Part shown: positions 14,891 through 20,733 of the stretch, one piece after another
Layout of the letters: each line of letters begins with the position of its first letter
Position numbering within the stretch: position 1 is the stretch's first letter
NCBI GenBank assembly: GCA_007125875.1
Contig: SLCI01000114.1
Span: 1-37,319, forward strand
Length of the DNA stretch: 37,319 bases
Direction: 5' to 3'
From: Kiritimatiellia bacterium
GTDB taxonomy: Bacteria > Verrucomicrobiota > Kiritimatiellia > SLAD01
The notes under the pieces: model-generated
The model's database searches: none
The model's input: only the letters and a program-made list of their open reading frames with translations
Told to the model about the DNA's origin: nothing
Made by a program: the position numbers and the translations under genes

Positions 14891-15138
14891 TAGGCTGTCT
14901 CAAAACCAGCTCGTCCCACCTCACAATAGTTAAGTCGCGTCCCAGTGTGGTAGGGCGAATCCTCTGGATGAGCCGTGAGCATGATCCGAGCGTGGGCAGA
15001 TTCTGGTCTTGCACCTACTCCAGCGGCTCGGCGAGACCCGCCGGAGGACGGGCAGGCAGCCTCGCCTTACCGCTGTTTCATGGTATAGGTGAAGCGCACT
15101 CCAAAATCCAGGATGAGCCGGGGTTGTGAGACCCCCTC
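14891..15138. mobile_element. 248-bp MITE-like element (IS1182-like ends) carrying a GTAG REP doublet
   Basis: Imperfect TIRs TAGGCTGTCTCAAAACC / GAGGGGGTCTCACAACC (13/17), flanking TTCC direct repeats (14887-14890, 15139-15142), no transposase, second partial copy at 19318-19498. Confidence 0.7.
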
Positions 15139-15222: not shown

Positions 15223-15726
15223 CTATAGTTTTTTTGCCTTCGCAAGTCCCAGTCGGCTTTGATGCAAATGGCTGATCGCCAAGGCCAGTGCATCGGCGGC
15301 GTCGTCGGGTGGCTCTTCGTCGAGCGATAGCAACACCTTGATCATGCGTGCAATTTGTTCCTTGTGGGCATTGCCATTGCCCACCACGGCCTGCTTCACG
15401 GATCTGGGGGAATACTCAAAGATTTCAAGCTTGTGCAAAGCGCATACGGCCAGCACAACTCCGCGCGCTTGCCCTAAGGTCACAGCGGTACGAACATTTT
15501 TGCTGAAAAAGATCCCTTCAATCGCAACGACATCGGGTTTATCCCGCAGGATAAATTGCTCCATCTCGCGGTATAGATGCGCCAACGATTCACTGTGCGA
15601 GCGCGAAGCAGGGTTCCGGATTCGATCCCAGCTAATACACTGGTAGGAAGAGCCGCGGGCTTCGACCACACCTACGCCGGAAGATCGTAGCGACGTATCA
15701 ACGCCCAATACGCGTTGATCAGGCAT
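15223..15726 (-). CDS. ruvC: Holliday junction resolvase RuvC
   Basis: VLGVDTS, VAIEGIFF, LGQARGV, VKQAVVGNGNAHKEQI, DAADALALAISH; directly downstream of yebC. Start taken at MPDQR. Confidence 0.95.
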   Translation of the reverse strand: MPDQRVLGVDTSLRSSGVGVVEARGSSYQCISWDRIRNPASRSHSESLAHLYREMEQFILRDKPDVVAIEGIFFSKNVRTAVTLGQARGVVLAVCALHKLEIFEYSPRSVKQAVVGNGNAHKEQIARMIKVLLSLDEEPPDDAADALALAISHLHQSRLGLAKAKKL

Positions 15727-16483
15727 CCTCGTCCTTTTCAATCGCCTCTAAGAGCTCATCGGAGATATCAAAATTTGAGTAGACGTTCTGAACATCATCC
15801 AAATCTTCGAGCATTTCGACAAAGCGCAGCAAGGCCTTCGCTTGCGCCAAATCCGTAACGGGCATGTAACTCTCCGGCAGTAGCGTGAGATCGGAATTTT
15901 GCACCGGGATCTCTTTCGACTCCAGCGCCCCTAACACTTCGGTGTAGGCTGAAGGATCCGTGATGATCTGGAAATAGTCGCCCTCGTTGGTCAACTCTTC
16001 TGCACCGCTTTCGAGGGCAAGTTCCAGCAGCTCATCCTCCTTCGCCGCCTCGGTCGAGACTTCGATCAAGCCCTTGCGATTAAAGGTACGCGTCACACTG
16101 CCCTGTCCAGCGAGGCTGCCGTTATTTTTTGTGAATGCATGCCGGATGTCAGCGGCTGAACGATTCCGGTTATCGGTTAAAGCTTGAGCAATAATGGCGA
16201 TGCCGCCAGCGGCATAGCCCTCATACATGATCTCCTCCATTTGCTCGCCTTCGAGCTCACCGGTGCCCTTCTTGATCGCCCGATCGATATTGTCTGCCGG
16301 CATGTTTACAGATCGAGCCTTCTGCACGAGCGTGCGCAAGGTGATGTTAGCGGCCGGATCACCACCGCCTTGACGCGCGGCAACGGTCATTTCCTTGGCG
16401 ATCTTGCTGAATACCTTACCGCGCTTTGCGTCCGCAGCCGCCTTCTTGTGCTTAATCGTTGACCATTTGCTATGTCCACTCAT
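15719..16483 (-). CDS. yebC: YebC/PmpR family protein
   Basis: MSGHSKWSTIKHKK, YEGY, LTDNRNRS, LEDLDDVQNVYSN. Confidence 0.97.
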   Translation of the reverse strand: MSGHSKWSTIKHKKAAADAKRGKVFSKIAKEMTVAARQGGGDPAANITLRTLVQKARSVNMPADNIDRAIKKGTGELEGEQMEEIMYEGYAAGGIAIIAQALTDNRNRSAADIRHAFTKNNGSLAGQGSVTRTFNRKGLIEVSTEAAKEDELLELALESGAEELTNEGDYFQIITDPSAYTEVLGALESKEIPVQNSDLTLLPESYMPVTDLAQAKALLRFVEMLEDLDDVQNVYSNFDISDELLEAIEKDEDA

Positions 16484-16559: not shown

Positions 16560-18593
16560 TTACTCGTCTTCTTCTTCATGCTGCTTGGCTTCAGCCATCA
16601 CCTTTTGCGCGATGTTCGCGGGTACAACCTCATAGCGGGCATAGGCCATCTCAAAACTACCGCGACCACCCGTCATACTGCGCAATTCAGAGGAGTAACG
16701 GAAGATCTCTGCTTGCGGCACCTCAGCGGTGACCACTTGCATACCGTCGCCACTCTCCACGCCCATGATGCGTCCACGCTTGTGATTCAAGTCGCCGGTA
16801 ATATCGCCCATGAACTGATCTGGAATCGTCACGGTCAGCTTCATAATGGGCTCGAGCAGCACGGGCTTGGCTTTACTCATACCGTCACGCAGTGCGCGCG
16901 CACCGGCAATCTTGAATGCCACTTCAGAGGAGTCCACATCATGATACGACCCATCGTAAACCGTAATCTTGACGTTCATTACAGGGTATCCTGCTACGGC
17001 ACCTCGTAAGAGCCCCTCCTGCAATCCTTTCTGTACCGCCGGCATAAAATTGCCGGGAATCACACCGCCGACAATCGCGTTTACAAACCACTCTTCATCG
17101 GACGGATCACGCGGGGCGACCCGCAGATACACTTCGCCATATTGGCCGCGACCACCGGATTGCTTCTTATGCTTGTGATGCCCTTCGCCTTGCGCGGTGA
17201 TGGTCTCACGATAAGCCACGCGCGGTGTGTGCAGCTCAACCTCGACATGATTACGTTCTTTCATACGCTCGACGGCCGCCTCCAATTGCTGGTCGCCTAA
17301 GCCAGAAAGGATCATCTCATGGGTTTCACTGTTGCGTTCCGTATGAATGGTCGGATCTTCGTCCGCCACACGATGCAAAGCGGTCGCCAACTTATCTTCG
17401 TCACCCTGTTTCTTGGCCGTGACAGAGTAGAAGGTGGTGGCGGAAGGGAATTCAATCGTATTGAAGTGAATCTCACTACCCACCGCGCAGAGTGAATCGT
17501 TCAACTCCGTCGCCTTCAATTTTGGAATCGCCACGATATCACCGGCATGTGCAACGTCGATCTCCTCCTGTTTCTTGCCGTTGATGATCATCAAGTGACC
17601 AACTTTTTCCTTCTGACCTTTCGTCGCATTATAAATTTCCTGACCTTTTTTAAGGCTCCCGCCATAAACACGTACGAAGGATACCTGCCCCGTGAACGGA
17701 TCATTCAGGGAACGCCAGACAAATCCTGAAAACGGCGCATCTGGATTCACATCAACGACCGAACCGTCCTTGTCCTTGACGGGGCGTTCCGGCGGTGAGG
17801 GCAGTAATAACGAGATGCCTTCCAGTAATTCCTCCAAGCCCAAATTAGTTTTAGACGAAACAGCAAAAACGGGGATCAAGTTGCCATCGTGCACGGCGCC
17901 ATGTAGGCCGGCAGCAATTTCTTCCGCTGATAAATCCTCGCCACCAAGATATTTTTCAATTAGGGCGTCGTCAGTTTCCGCGGCGTACTCAACCAGTGCC
18001 CCTTTCATTTCCTTGGCGCGATCAGCGATGTCCGCCGGGATTTCTTTAGCGGCCATGACGTCGATCACACTCTTGTGATCCAGCGTGGGAATAACGACCG
18101 GCACACATTGTGCGCCCCACAAGCCTTGGATGGCTTCCAAGGCCCCATAGAAATCGGCATTCTCTTTATCGATGCCGGTCACCACGATCGCACGCGGCAA
18201 TCCAGCCAGCTCGCAGTTTTTCCATGCACGGTGTGTACCAACCTGCACGCCAGAAACGGCATCAACGACAATCACTCCACCATCGGACACGGCCGTGGCT
18301 GATAAGACTTGGCCATAGAAATCAGCATATCCAGGGGTGTCCAGAGCAACCAACTCCATGTCGCGACCGCCCTTGGTCTTATAGACCAAATCGAAAGATG
18401 TCGCCCACATCGAGATCTGACGTGATTTTTCCTCGTCGGTCCAATCGGAAGCGCTGGTGCCGTTATCGGGAGAGCCTTGACGATCTGTAACCCCCAGCTT
18501 GAAGAGAATGGCATCGAGCAAAGCCGTCTTGCCCGAACCGGTATGCCCCAATAAAGCGAAATTGCGGACGTTGGTGATCTCGATATTCTTCAT
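16560..18593 (-). CDS. fusA2: Elongation factor G paralogue (EF-G2 / EF-G II type)
   Basis: Five-domain EF-G architecture (GHTGSGKT, KKQSGGRGQYG, DGSYHDVDSSEVAF, LLEPIM, LRSMTGGRG), outside the str operon, degenerate G2/G3/G4 motifs. Confidence 0.9.
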   Translation of the reverse strand: MKNIEITNVRNFALLGHTGSGKTALLDAILFKLGVTDRQGSPDNGTSASDWTDEEKSRQISMWATSFDLVYKTKGGRDMELVALDTPGYADFYGQVLSATAVSDGGVIVVDAVSGVQVGTHRAWKNCELAGLPRAIVVTGIDKENADFYGALEAIQGLWGAQCVPVVIPTLDHKSVIDVMAAKEIPADIADRAKEMKGALVEYAAETDDALIEKYLGGEDLSAEEIAAGLHGAVHDGNLIPVFAVSSKTNLGLEELLEGISLLLPSPPERPVKDKDGSVVDVNPDAPFSGFVWRSLNDPFTGQVSFVRVYGGSLKKGQEIYNATKGQKEKVGHLMIINGKKQEEIDVAHAGDIVAIPKLKATELNDSLCAVGSEIHFNTIEFPSATTFYSVTAKKQGDEDKLATALHRVADEDPTIHTERNSETHEMILSGLGDQQLEAAVERMKERNHVEVELHTPRVAYRETITAQGEGHHKHKKQSGGRGQYGEVYLRVAPRDPSDEEWFVNAIVGGVIPGNFMPAVQKGLQEGLLRGAVAGYPVMNVKITVYDGSYHDVDSSEVAFKIAGARALRDGMSKAKPVLLEPIMKLTVTIPDQFMGDITGDLNHKRGRIMGVESGDGMQVVTAEVPQAEIFRYSSELRSMTGGRGSFEMAYARYEVVPANIAQKVMAEAKQHEEEDE

Positions 18594-18695
18594 CAGCTGT
18601 GCCTCTCCCTCGTCATTATGGTACGTCTAATTACGCTTCAGCGGCGTACCGGTGAGAGTCCACAAGGAACGCCGACAAAAGCACGTGAAATGGTT

Positions 18696-18720
18696 GCTGT
18701 GACGATGATCACGTCACAGC
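18696..18720. promoter_or_regulatory. Inverted repeat / CRP-FNR-like operator upstream of the EF-G paralogue
   Basis: GCTGTGACG-ATGATCA-CGTCACAGC (perfect 9-bp arms), containing TGTGA-N6-TCACG. Confidence 0.4.
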
Positions 18721-19006
18721 GTCCGAGTGCCTCATTGATACGACACTTAAGGGCGTTTGACAACGAGAAAGCCGTTTATGAGCCTTCGGTCAACTATGAA
18801 GAAATGCATCAGGGAAAGCCCCATCGAGGTTCCTCGAGTGGACGGTTAGAGGGACCGGGGTCGGACCACAGGTTTCTCCAGAACATCAACGGTTTGCGAC
18901 TGCGAAACGGCATGATTATGGGCTTAGAGGCGCCTTTTGAGGGTGGTTTAAGGCTCTAAGGGCTGAGAATGTGACGAGCCGGACGGATGGGAATGGGCAC
19001 CAATGC

Positions 19007-19149
19007 TTTTCCAACGATTGGAAAACGGCCCGAAAATTTTTCCAACGATTGGAAAAAGTGCGGGAAAAAGTTCCAACGATTGGAAAACTCACCTAAAAAG
19101 TTTCCAATGATTGGAAAATGGCGAAAAGTTTCTCCCAATGATTGGAGAC
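19007..19149. repeat. Array of five palindromes TTCCAA(C/T)GATTGGAA at an exact 31-bp period
   Basis: CCAA cores start at 19011, 19042, 19073, 19104, 19135. Short variable linkers carry A-tracts. Confidence 0.9.
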
Positions 19150-19317
19150 GTATCTTTTGCGCTGCGGGCGGGGCATGTTTCGGCTGGCGGTTGTCTTCGC
19201 GGACAGTTAGCTGTTGGTTGGGATTGAGATGTCTCGACAGGCTCGACATGACTGCGTTTTTTGATGTCGCTCCATTGGCGCGGCTTGCTGAGCTTGCTCT
19301 CTGTTGCGTGATGGGAT

Positions 19318-19498
19318 CGGTAGGGCGAGGCTGCCTGCCCGTCCTCCGGCGGGTCTCGCCGAGCCGCTGGAGCAGGCGCAAGCACAGGGTCAGCACGGGT
19401 GCAGATCATGCTCACGGCTCATCCAGAGGATTCGCCCTACCAAATTTGGACGTGACCCACATTTTTTGCCGCACTGCGGATGGTTTTGAGACAGCCTC
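19318..19498. mobile_element. Inverted partial copy of the MITE/REP-doublet element
   Basis: Reverse-complement blocks match 14892-14908 (17/17), 14948-14986 (39/39) and 15018-15072 (54/55). Ends in TIR GGTTTTGAGACAGCCTC. Confidence 0.8.
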
Positions 19499-19641
19499 TC
19501 CCATCGAGCCGTTGGAAAGAGTGCGGGATGATGACCGAACCTGGCGCCGCGAAGCACCTGCTCGGCGGAAGCGGGTCGAGTAAGTGTGGAGATGAAGTGT
19601 TCCCGTGAAGCGGGCGGGTGGCCCCTGCCCCGCCAGCGTCT

Positions 19642-20733
19642 TTACAGCCACTGTTTCTTGTCGGCTTGCTTCAGCTTTTCGACCAGTTTCTTGACGTCTT
19701 GGGCCCGGTCTCGAGGACAGATCAAGGTGGCGTCATCCGCCTGGACGACAATCAAATCAGACACACCGATTAAGGCGGTTAGCCGCCCTTTCGAATAGAC
19801 GATATTCTGATTGGCATCGACTGTCTCACTATCCCCAATCGACACATTCCCCTCGGCATCGGCATCAAAGTGATTATCGAGCGCCGGCCAAGCGCCAACG
19901 TCATCCCAGGCAAACGTGCCGCGCACCATTAGGATATTGTCGGCCTTCTCCATCAGTGCGTAATCAATCGAGATCTTCTCAAGATCAGCATACGCATCGC
20001 GCAACGCATCCGAAAAAGCTTCCGTGTGTGCGACGGGCGTAAGGTCGTCAATTAGGCTTTTTAGTGGGAGCCGATGACGCTCCAAGGCGTTTTCGATGGC
20101 GCGGACCGACCAAATGAACATGCCGGAATTCCAGCAGAAACGGCCTGACTCCAAATACGTTTGTGCCGTTTCGGCATCGGGCTTCTCAACGAAGCGGATC
20201 GCCTTCAGGAACGTGACCGCTTCGATTTCGGCATCCACATCCGCCGCTTCAATGTAGCCGTAGCCTGTGCTGGGTTCGGTGGGCTGGATGCCGATCGTAA
20301 TCAGGACGTCGCGCTGCTGCGCAAGCAAAAGACTTTGCTTCAGCGTGTTGCGATAGATATCCAAATCACCGATGACATGATCAGCGGTCAGAATACAAAA
20401 GGATGCATCAGGATCTTTAGCTTTGACTAACGCTGCCCCTAACGCGGCGGCTGCTGCGGTATCGCGTCCAACCGGCTCACCAATAATGTTTTCCAGCGGT
20501 AGTTGAGGAGCAGCGGCTTGCGATGCCTCCACCAAGTCCTGATTGGTAATGACATACACGCGCTCTGGCGGGATGAGGCCTTCGAGCCGATCCACGGCCT
20601 GCGCCAGGAGCGTCGCATCGCCTACCAGTGAAAGCAATTGTTTGGGACGCTGGGTACGACTGAGCGGCCAAAACCGTTCACCACGTCCACCAGCCAAAAT
20701 TACTGCATACATTCGATCCATCATATTCCTCAC
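19642..20733 (-). CDS. manC: Mannose-1-phosphate guanylyltransferase
   Basis: VILAGGRGERFWPLSR..RPKQLL, EPVGRDTA, FVEKPD, WNSGMF, ISIDYALMEKA, WDDVGAW. No PMI domain. Start may be ATG 20724. Confidence 0.93.
   Translation of the reverse strand: MRNMMDRMYAVILAGGRGERFWPLSRTQRPKQLLSLVGDATLLAQAVDRLEGLIPPERVYVITNQDLVEASQAAAPQLPLENIIGEPVGRDTAAAAALGAALVKAKDPDASFCILTADHVIGDLDIYRNTLKQSLLLAQQRDVLITIGIQPTEPSTGYGYIEAADVDAEIEAVTFLKAIRFVEKPDAETAQTYLESGRFCWNSGMFIWSVRAIENALERHRLPLKSLIDDLTPVAHTEAFSDALRDAYADLEKISIDYALMEKADNILMVRGTFAWDDVGAWPALDNHFDADAEGNVSIGDSETVDANQNIVYSKGRLTALIGVSDLIVVQADDATLICPRDRAQDVKKLVEKLKQADKKQWL

Follow-up and report, generated by a model that had tools for sequence, protein, structure and literature searches.

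A probable dispersed repeat family built from phased 31-bp palindromic units in the Kiritimatiellia

The window, by which we mean the whole 37,319-nucleotide stretch of DNA that was analysed, is contig SLCI01000114.1 of the Kiritimatiellia bacterium assembly GCA_007125875.1. At positions 19007..19149 it carries an array of five short palindromes at an exact period of 31 bp. Arrays of this kind occur throughout the genome and across the class. They change by whole units and are present or absent at orthologous sites. We argue that they are probably an undescribed, class-specific family of dispersed repeats, similar in kind to repetitive extragenic palindromic (REP) sequences, Rickettsia palindromic elements (RPE) and mycobacterial interspersed repetitive units (MIRU), and that the copy in the window is one of its non-coding members. 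An element that is dispersed, patchy, variable in unit number, gained and lost, uniform within a genome, clustered with other repeats and stop-free fits a repeat family better than it fits a dedicated regulatory site.

The preliminary description of this DNA, which was made from the sequence alone, had suspected an undescribed element. This stands, as neither Rfam nor the literature gives a match to any described family. An Rfam scan of 18500-19700 returned two chance-level matches only (E about 0.7). Literature searches on the Kiritimatiellia and on REP sequences of the Verrucomicrobia gave nothing on repeats of this kind in the class.

The array and its genome

The unit of the window array is the 19-bp palindrome kTTTCCAAYGATTGGAAAA, and units start at 19007, 19038, 19069, 19100 and 19131. 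The plus strand is taken as the orientation in which the linkers are A-rich. Four of the five units have the exact core TTCCAAYGATTGGAA. The fifth (19131..19149, plus strand) is the degenerate TCTCCCAATGATTGGAGAC, and both a reading of the sequence and a mismatch scan give its core, TCCCAATGATTGGAG, 2 mismatches. Tandem Repeats Finder reports 19007-19146 with a period of 31 and 4.5 copies. A motif scan of the whole window that allowed up to 3 mismatches gave 11 matches where 2.26 were expected (standard deviation 1.74), and 11 or more were reached in 0 of 100 shuffles. Ten of the 11 matches are the five array units counted on both strands. The sequence, the repeat finder and the shuffle-controlled scan all confirm the five palindromes and the exact period that had been read from this stretch before. 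The linkers were said to vary in sequence at a fixed length, and they do, with 12 nt throughout the array. It is also true, by Pfam, that there are no cas, rep or par genes nearby in the window, but the array is one of many so this is beside the point. No turn in GC skew was found within the window.

The window belongs to G000, a draft genome of 2.37 Mb in 259 contigs that is 89.5% complete. With up to 2 mismatches the motif is found there 106 times forward and 110 times in reverse, while a reversed control pattern is found 1 and 4 times. Clustering of these matches gives 28 arrays of 2-6 units each, with 111 units in total. The flanks are unrelated from one array to the next. There are 19 isolated near-matches, each with 2 mismatches and each inside a called gene, as chance would give. 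The spacing between successive units, counted with a first and stricter pattern, is 31 bp in 77 cases, 32 bp in 5 and 30 bp in 1. By our own crude ORF-based gene model (ORF, open reading frame; 1,959 genes, 88.7% coding) the majority of the arrays are intergenic.

Most linkers in G000 have a G+C-rich core of 6-7 nt followed by an A-run, and the 13-nt linkers are alike among themselves. The A-tracts had been described as phased, which holds across this genome. A-runs fall at unit positions of about 16-20 and 27-31, in step with a helical repeat of about 10.3 bp; they recur roughly every 10-11 bp for two of every three helical turns. The polar decay that had been noted is a feature of the window array, but it does not hold generally. 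Of the 28 arrays, 27 begin with a perfect unit and 26 end with one.

Distribution in the class

The same element is found well outside this genome. Of 41 related genomes, 25 have the strict motif, among them 10 of the 11 other members of the family; counts go up to 278, and reversed controls give 0. In G003, which belongs to the same genus as G000, TTCCATTGARTGGAA replaces TTCCAAYGAYTGGAA in all 12 arrays fetched and the period is still 31. We searched 200 genomes of the phylum with a relaxed pattern (TTCC-N7-GGAA twice, 30-32 bp apart). Of the 66 that belong to the same class (Kiritimatiellia by their titles), 31 have it, at 1 to 1,052 adjacent pairs each. In the other classes of the phylum there is a single match in 8 of 134 genomes and never more. 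When each species was represented by one genome and two units 30-32 bp apart were sought, at least 141 loci were found. The titles among the matches listed are Kiritimatiellae, Kiritimatiellales, Verrucomicrobia(ota), 'Lentisphaerae', 'Spartobacteria' or those of unspecific metagenome-assembled genomes (MAGs).

The preliminary description had proposed looking at the spacing in the genome itself and in its relatives. When no condition on spacing was imposed, three whole contigs from three other families gave 31 bp 35 times and 32 bp 10 times, with 42, 62, 63, 83 and 126 bp once each. This is a sharp peak at 31-32 bp. Since the period is common to several genomes, it must be a property of the element family and not of the window locus. 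The genome with 1,052 adjacent unit pairs is G021 (5.3 Mb, another family). One of its contigs, of 140 kb, has 26 arrays or single units, about one per 5 kb. They lie in every type of intergenic region and often 5-50 nt from stop codons.

It must be noted that most of these genomes are fragmented MAGs with contigs broken at repeats, so array counts are lower bounds. An array that is called absent is one that the pattern in use did not find, and strict patterns can miss variants of the motif, as G003 shows. A phage-borne element was also considered. We reject it for its near-absence from viral contigs, where two phased units were found at just 7 loci on 6 of 2.9 million contigs.

Turnover between relatives

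The arrays come and go by whole units. A nucleotidyltransferase gene on contig C51 of G000 has a 5-unit array in its middle that splits the Pfam match into two stretches. The gene was found in 12 of 12 family genomes searched, and eight orthologues were compared over the segment from NGDT to IAV(T). This segment is 72 nt with one near-unit in G003, 72 nt with 2 units in G009, 117 nt with 2 units in G007 and 135 nt with no unit in G005. It is 165 nt with 5 units each in G000 and G001, 195 nt with 6 units in G002 and 219 nt with 3-4 units in G010. The first spacing in G002 is 31 and not 32, which holds the frame. A single ORF spans both sides of the array site in all eight orthologues, and the sole in-frame TAG in G001 lies upstream of the likely start.

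Other loci can be followed in the same way. An ExbB-like gene has 6 N-terminal units in each of G000, G001 and G003, those of G003 being without exception of that genome's own type. The G000 and G001 copies of this array have identical palindromes, while 4 of the 5 linker cores differ. Two neighbouring linkers are identical in the G003 copy, which indicates a recent duplication. The n-region of a LolA-like signal peptide has 5 units in G000, 3 in G010 and 0 in G003 and G007, which have ordinary short signal peptides. An array next to a tRNA has 4 units in G000 and is one degenerate unit in G001. No array was found upstream of the EF-G orthologue in 4 relatives. For one more G000 array locus (C61) no orthologous flanks were found at E <= 1e-30 in G001, G002 or G003. 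At the window locus, two DNA runs from other samples have the same five units, with one X2 contig spanning 18980-19290 without differences. No unit-number variants were seen there, in contig data, which drop rare variants.

How would such a family be maintained? It may propagate itself or it may drift neutrally, and it would be tolerated wherever it is harmless, as are REP sequences and bacterial interspersed mosaic elements (BIME), RPE and MIRUs. Units would be gained and lost by slippage or by unequal recombination between the 31-bp repeats. Two things might keep the palindrome uniform within a genome: a protein dimer of twofold symmetry that reads the duplex, or base pairing between the two arms when the DNA or RNA is single-stranded.

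Arrays read as protein

A period that is not a multiple of 3 had been taken to mean that the repeat is not coding. This is wrong as a general statement, because some arrays lie inside real genes and are read through in three successive frames. Since 31 = 30 + 1, successive units are read in successive frames. The unit is stop-free in all six frames, and the sole exception is a TGA in one frame when the variable Y is T. Because the units are nearly stop-free and are read in this way, arrays survive inside genes when their total length keeps the frame. At least one frame per strand is open in all 28 arrays of G000, and the means are 1.79 and 2.11 frames of 3. Mononucleotide shuffles of the arrays have a mean of 0.35 open frames and a maximum of 0.71 in 500. 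In the G003 ExbB-like array the only unit that is read in the TGA-prone frame has CGA.

A 102-kb contig of G017 has five arrays, and all five lie inside the 5' ends of ORFs of 3.9-9.7 kb; three of the five genes are paralogous. In each, the array comes some 45-65 nt after a Shine-Dalgarno sequence and an ATG and leads straight into the hydrophobic core of a signal peptide, with no in-frame start between. The units are translated as FQ(T/S/A)LEK, FP(N/I)IGK and FSKHWK. In G000, apart from the nucleotidyltransferase, arrays lie in the genes of the ExbB-like protein (C154, 6 units), the LolA-like protein (C151, 5 units) and a membrane protein (C74, 4 units ahead of a hydrophobic segment). Further arrays lie in genes of sulfatases, a lipoprotein and giant secreted proteins, and one lies in a Ser/Thr kinase gene, in its juxtamembrane part. 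In three orthologues the array is preceded by a Shine-Dalgarno sequence and ATG.

We examined 138 arrays for signal-peptide context, 110 from other genomes and 28 from G000, with one array (L058, which is G017:C9:12083) counted twice. A hydrophobic core no more than 6 residues after the array, leading into a long ORF, is found in 20 of the 138, and 19 of these 20 are open back to an upstream start. The background is high, as some 60-70% of the frames of an array are open in any case, but 19 of 20 would still be improbable by chance (about 0.002 by a rough hand calculation). The share of arrays that lie inside an ORF is about 1 in 7. Most of these are at the positively charged n-region of a signal peptide, between start codon and hydrophobic core, and one is in an enzyme gene. 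The array-encoded stretches are themselves basic, with 17 K+R against 5 D+E in 59 residues and 13 against 5 in 49.

A separate observation is the array at C224:7096-7251 of G000, which forms a 51-aa ORF between two genes. The ORF begins with an ATG 4 nt past the stop of the gene upstream and ends in a TGA that overlaps the ATG of the following gene (ATGA).

It is worth considering whether the peptide is what is selected. The repeated peptides FSNDWK, FQRLEK and FPTIGK would then be the selected part and the DNA palindrome a by-product. The encoded stretches are strongly basic and sit where signal peptides carry positive charge, as this would predict. However, the DNA core is conserved in whichever of the three frames it is read and on both strands, and arrays between convergent genes keep it just as well. 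The array-encoded peptide is also without a match to any Pfam or NCBIfam model. We consider the idea close to refuted.

Another scenario is a phase-variation switch. Gain or loss of one 31-bp unit would shift the frame between the start codon and the signal peptide, and so turn secreted proteins on and off. The pentamer repeats in neisserial opa genes are an analogue. The unit length is 1 modulo 3, arrays do lie between a start codon and a signal-peptide core, and unit number differs between orthologues. Against this, the assemblies have 19 in-frame configurations and 1 out of frame. The orthologues compared are in frame throughout, those with 2, 5 and 6 units included, one of these via a 31-for-32 change of spacing. 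The majority of arrays are outside genes altogether. The lack of unit-number variants at the window locus in the two DNA runs points the same way, if weakly, as these are contig data. A switch of this kind would be a real surprise.

Conserved and changing positions of the palindrome

The outer arms TTCC/GGAA are invariant, which is partly due to how the searches were constructed; the inner positions were left free. Among 349 units taken from 45 MAGs, 346 have G or C at the centre. Inner-arm variants in other families are CCAAG-S-CTTGG, CCACA-S-TGTGG and CCATA-S-CGTGG. Units are uniform inside a genome, and both arms change together between genomes, even within a genus. Arm pairing in a hairpin or cruciform together with homogenisation would produce such a pattern, and so would a co-evolving reader with twofold symmetry.

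We compared 19 representative units, hand-picked from 16 genomes. Their sixth arm pair is A-T in 12, T-G in 5 and C-G in 2, and it is unpaired in none. The covariation score for the whole structure is 0.240 against 0.108 in shuffles and was reached by 0 of 500, but the rows are related and hand-picked and the value is descriptive only. Hairpin covariation at the flanking positions was tried and must be rejected. The raw excess vanished at all five position pairs tested once the 3' letters were shuffled inside each genome. Complementary pairs at four flanking positions and at two beside the centre were observed at or below the shuffle mean.

The preliminary description had favoured a cooperative landing pad. 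In the form considered here, each palindrome would bind a dimer of a conserved DNA-binding protein with a role in nucleoid organisation, insulation or global regulation, and the dimers, three turns apart, would all lie on one face of the helix. The 15-bp dyad core with its nearly constant G:C centre is what such a protein would want. The strict 31-32 bp period in four genomes of different families and the joint change of both arms between lineages also agree with it. In some genomes even the positions next to the centre, which cannot pair, are symmetric (one MAG has T-S-A in 65 of 66 units, another G-S-C in 19 of 31), and the within-genome shuffles show no compensatory pairing. Elsewhere, though, these positions are asymmetric, for example ACA in G017 and TGT in G226. 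The arrays are patchy, since the relaxed pattern is absent from 35 of the 66 class genomes and the others have 1 to 1052 pairs. They are gained and lost between close relatives, and they sit in all intergenic types and in coding regions, including that of an enzyme. No candidate protein was found, although no proteome-wide phylogenetic profile was run. The dyad and the symmetric changes between lineages are therefore compatible with the earlier proposal, but a dispersed, copy-variable family for which no such protein was identified is not what it would lead us to expect. We regard the landing pad as unlikely, if the most serious competitor to a repeat family.

The arrays as RNA

The units could instead act in transcripts, where their hairpins would affect mRNA stability, termination or the early translation of host or adjacent genes. 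A single unit can form a hairpin of 9 bp with a loop of 3 nt (-6.7 kcal/mol), and the fold of the whole array has z = -6.2 on the plus strand and -3.8 on the minus strand. In 17 of the 24 cases in G000 the A-rich strand runs in the same direction as the gene upstream of it. Where genes were called on either side (22 arrays), the pair of genes is convergent at 10, tandem at 10 and divergent at 2. Many arrays lie within the first 200 nt of ORFs. Where the sixth pair varies it does so by transitions, and on one strand a G-U type pair is retained. However, hairpin potential is inherent to any palindrome. The strand that permits the wobble differs between G000 and G003 relative to the polarity of the linkers. 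Arrays also occur between divergent genes and in both orientations, and there is neither within-genome covariation nor an Rfam match. The stems are A/U-rich and would be weak for terminators. We think a function in RNA is improbable. The idea that the array is processed into small RNAs fares no better, as nothing supports it past the hairpin potential that any palindrome has.

A terminator was considered on its own and rejected. The strand with a U-run behind each hairpin faces a gene 3' end in 16 of 26 cases in G000 and the other strand does so in 17 of 24, so there is no preference of orientation.

Parts of the window stretch are present in three metatranscriptome runs, of which two were examined; uncovered stretches are uninformative. 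Their contigs include pieces of arrays with other flanks, and the 5' end of the EF-G-like gene is covered to 18719. These contigs do not show strand or transcript ends, and carry-over of DNA is possible.

The gap around the window array

The window array sits in a 1,048-bp gap between the start of an EF-G-like gene and the stop of a ManC-like gene. The EF-G-like GTPase gene (16560..18593, minus strand) has its start codon 413 nt from the array. The sugar-phosphate nucleotidyltransferase gene (ManC-like; 19642..20733, minus strand) has its stop codon 492 nt from it. Both were assigned by ORF and Pfam. Genes of RuvC and of the YebC/TACO1 family (15223-16483, by Pfam) adjoin the EF-G-like gene and are ordinary housekeeping neighbours. 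In all five relatives searched, the two flanking genes are on separate contigs, so the gap could not be compared as a whole.

A 198-aa ORF (18987..19583, plus strand) has its ATG 20 nt before the array. It reads through the array (FPTIGK..FSNDWK..FQRLE..FPMIGK..) and onward through the two repeat families, B and C, that follow. It has only a weakly hydrophobic stretch after the array and no Pfam or NCBIfam match. This ORF is probably not a gene. We take the window array as a non-coding member of the family that is possibly the remnant of a lost gene start.

The gap is a mosaic of four repeat families, with the array as one of them. The other three were found by BLAST of the gap against the genome. 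Family U (18857..18960) has 3 other copies in G000. At two G000 loci, the window and contig C184, it lies about 45 nt ahead of an array. Family B has a 43-bp core like TTGGGATTGAGATGTCTCGACAGGCTCGACATGACTGCG (19210..19252) with 45 further matches in G000. Family C (19318..19456) is about 140 bp with inverted ends GGTAGGGCGA and TCGCCCTACC, and it has tens of copies in G000.

Some further observations on these repeats can be recorded. Copies of family U are found at C184:133-237 and C259:702-805 of G000, and in G001 (C14), G003 (C19) and G006 (C51). The G001 copy is followed by only half a unit, the G003 copy lies about 170 nt ahead of an array of the G003 type, and the G006 copy adjoins a Y1_Tnp gene. 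Several matches to family B form tandem pairs 200-350 bp apart. The ends of family C are GTAG-tagged and resemble a REP doublet, and the window has another copy at 14892-15072.

G000 also has a second palindrome, ATAGCTTATAAGCTAT / TAATAGCTTATAAGCTATTA, which occurs in pairs only. Its 32 sites form 16 pairs, usually 41 bp apart and all intergenic, and the intervening sequence is unrelated at a fixed spacing. The pairs are on contigs C17, C36, C56, C75, C100, C110, C113, C127, C179, C184, C196, C225, C235, C241 and C259, and none is in the window. Such a pair trails 7 of the 28 arrays, 44 bp (38 bp once) past the last unit. C184:600-1100 has a 351-bp tandem duplication with two ATAGC palindrome pairs whose flanks are identical.

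Points against a repeat family, and its implications

Several results weigh against the repeat family that we prefer. A whole class shares the outer arms and the 31-32 bp period. Most selfish repeat families do not keep their sequence for so long, and such conservation would suit the binding site of a host protein. Neither a target-site duplication nor a clean pair of empty and filled sites between very close genomes was obtained. No propagating enzyme was found. One candidate is the Y1_Tnp family, to which the REP-associated tyrosine transposases (RAYT) belong, and it is present in 12 of 12 genomes of the family. In G000 it has five loci, of which none is flanked by units on both sides and two are within 1 kb of an array, on one side only. 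Across 67 class genomes Y1_Tnp and arrays are unrelated. There is no Y1_Tnp at E <= 1e-5 in G021, with its 1,052 pairs, or in G083, G032 and G173. Many genomes that lack arrays do have Y1_Tnp, and one of them, G074, has 31 matches. Covariation at the flanking positions is absent within genomes once the 3' letters are shuffled in each genome separately, which leaves a hairpin constraint that goes further than the conserved arms unsupported. Finally, a share of about 1 in 7 at n-regions exceeds what random insertion and tolerance should give, by a rough estimate that was not computed, and a function there is possible.

One RAYT-like gene can be described in its own right. The Y1 transposase gene at C249:2776-3384 of G000 is flanked by GCCGAGC...GCTCGGC, which is a different repeat family of at least 6 copies.

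Three of these features are unusual for elements of the REP, RPE and MIRU kind: the strict three-turn phasing, the class-wide outer arms without a recognisable transposase and the share of arrays at n-regions. They keep the landing pad and a host function in secretion alive. The two can be combined in a more speculative scenario, in which the element works at two levels. A co-evolving protein of twofold symmetry would read, and perhaps copy, the 31-bp module, which would be kept open in all six frames. The host would have adopted the arrays as modular basic extensions, both of Sec signal peptides and of cytoplasmic loops that adjoin membrane helices, and their spread would shape the secretome of the class. 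We find this doubtful, somewhat more so than the landing pad by itself.

If the arrays are a dispersed repeat family, then the Kiritimatiellia have an undescribed element with up to about 1,000 adjacent unit pairs per genome that breaks the assembly of MAGs. Gene callers would be misled, because true starts lie upstream of arrays. Sulfatases, lipoproteins and giant surface proteins would carry basic stretches of 20-60 residues on their N-termini. It would be a rare natural case of one DNA sequence that is read in three frames in succession. The switches of the motif within a genus could help to find the reader of the palindrome. Variation in unit number could provide strain markers in an uncultured group, as MIRU typing does for mycobacteria.

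Comparison with known systems

The arrays share with CRISPR arrays partly palindromic repeats at regular spacing with variable sequence between them. They differ in that the repeat is 19 bp, the 'spacer' is 12-13 nt with a fixed pattern of GC core and A-run and is sometimes duplicated, and there are dozens of short arrays per genome. No match to Cas1 was found in G000, as far as its 89.5% completeness goes. The preliminary description had thought CRISPR unlikely, and the short linkers and the lack of Cas1 both agree.

Iteron and centromere arrays such as sopC and parC are also phased tandem binding sites with dyad symmetry. Those occupy one or a few loci, beside rep or par genes, while the 28 loci seen here have neighbours of unrelated kinds; in the window these are the EF-G-like and ManC-like genes.

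BOX elements have the modular structure boxA-(boxB)n-boxC. The arrays resemble them as dispersed elements with an internal tandem module of variable number, and as elements that are bunched with other repeats, as in the window gap. The difference is that the arrays have no conserved terminal flanking modules; 7 of 28 are followed by the second palindrome pair. Pneumococcal BOX elements are among those mentioned in PMC10969869.

MIRUs, in the account that PMC3184786 gives of them, are tandem units at some 40-50 dispersed loci, between the genes of operons, with ORFs that overlap the adjacent genes. The C224 array is like this, as the stop of its ORF overlaps the start of the gene that follows. 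MIRU units, however, measure 40-100 bp and, in that account, are no simple palindromes, and a coupled ORF of this sort was seen here just once.

RPE are inserted in frame in unrelated genes, where they add a segment to the peptide, according to the sections on them in PMC10969869 and PMC3184786. The likeness is one of behaviour alone. The palindromes lie inside ORFs and leave the frame intact, as in the nucleotidyltransferase, ExbB-like, LolA-like, membrane and giant secreted-protein genes. RPE, as these sections describe them, are single elements of about 105-150 bp in Rickettsia, while here there are arrays of 31-bp units that are read in three frames.

REP sequences and BIMEs share several traits with the arrays. 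The unit is short and palindromic, its copy number is high (111 units in 28 arrays) and it is mostly extragenic and often clustered. Its sequence is species-specific, its number varies between relatives and it is sometimes inside genes. The units here are direct and strictly phased in tandem, whereas those of BIMEs alternate. The GTAG or CGTC end tag of REP sequences, in the part of PMC3733652 that defines them, is missing from units of the form k/T-TTTCC...GGAAAA. The same part places GTAG repeats in the verrucomicrobium Opitutus terrae, and these are a different element. The remaining differences are that no link to Y1_Tnp is seen here and that the outer arms are conserved across the whole class.

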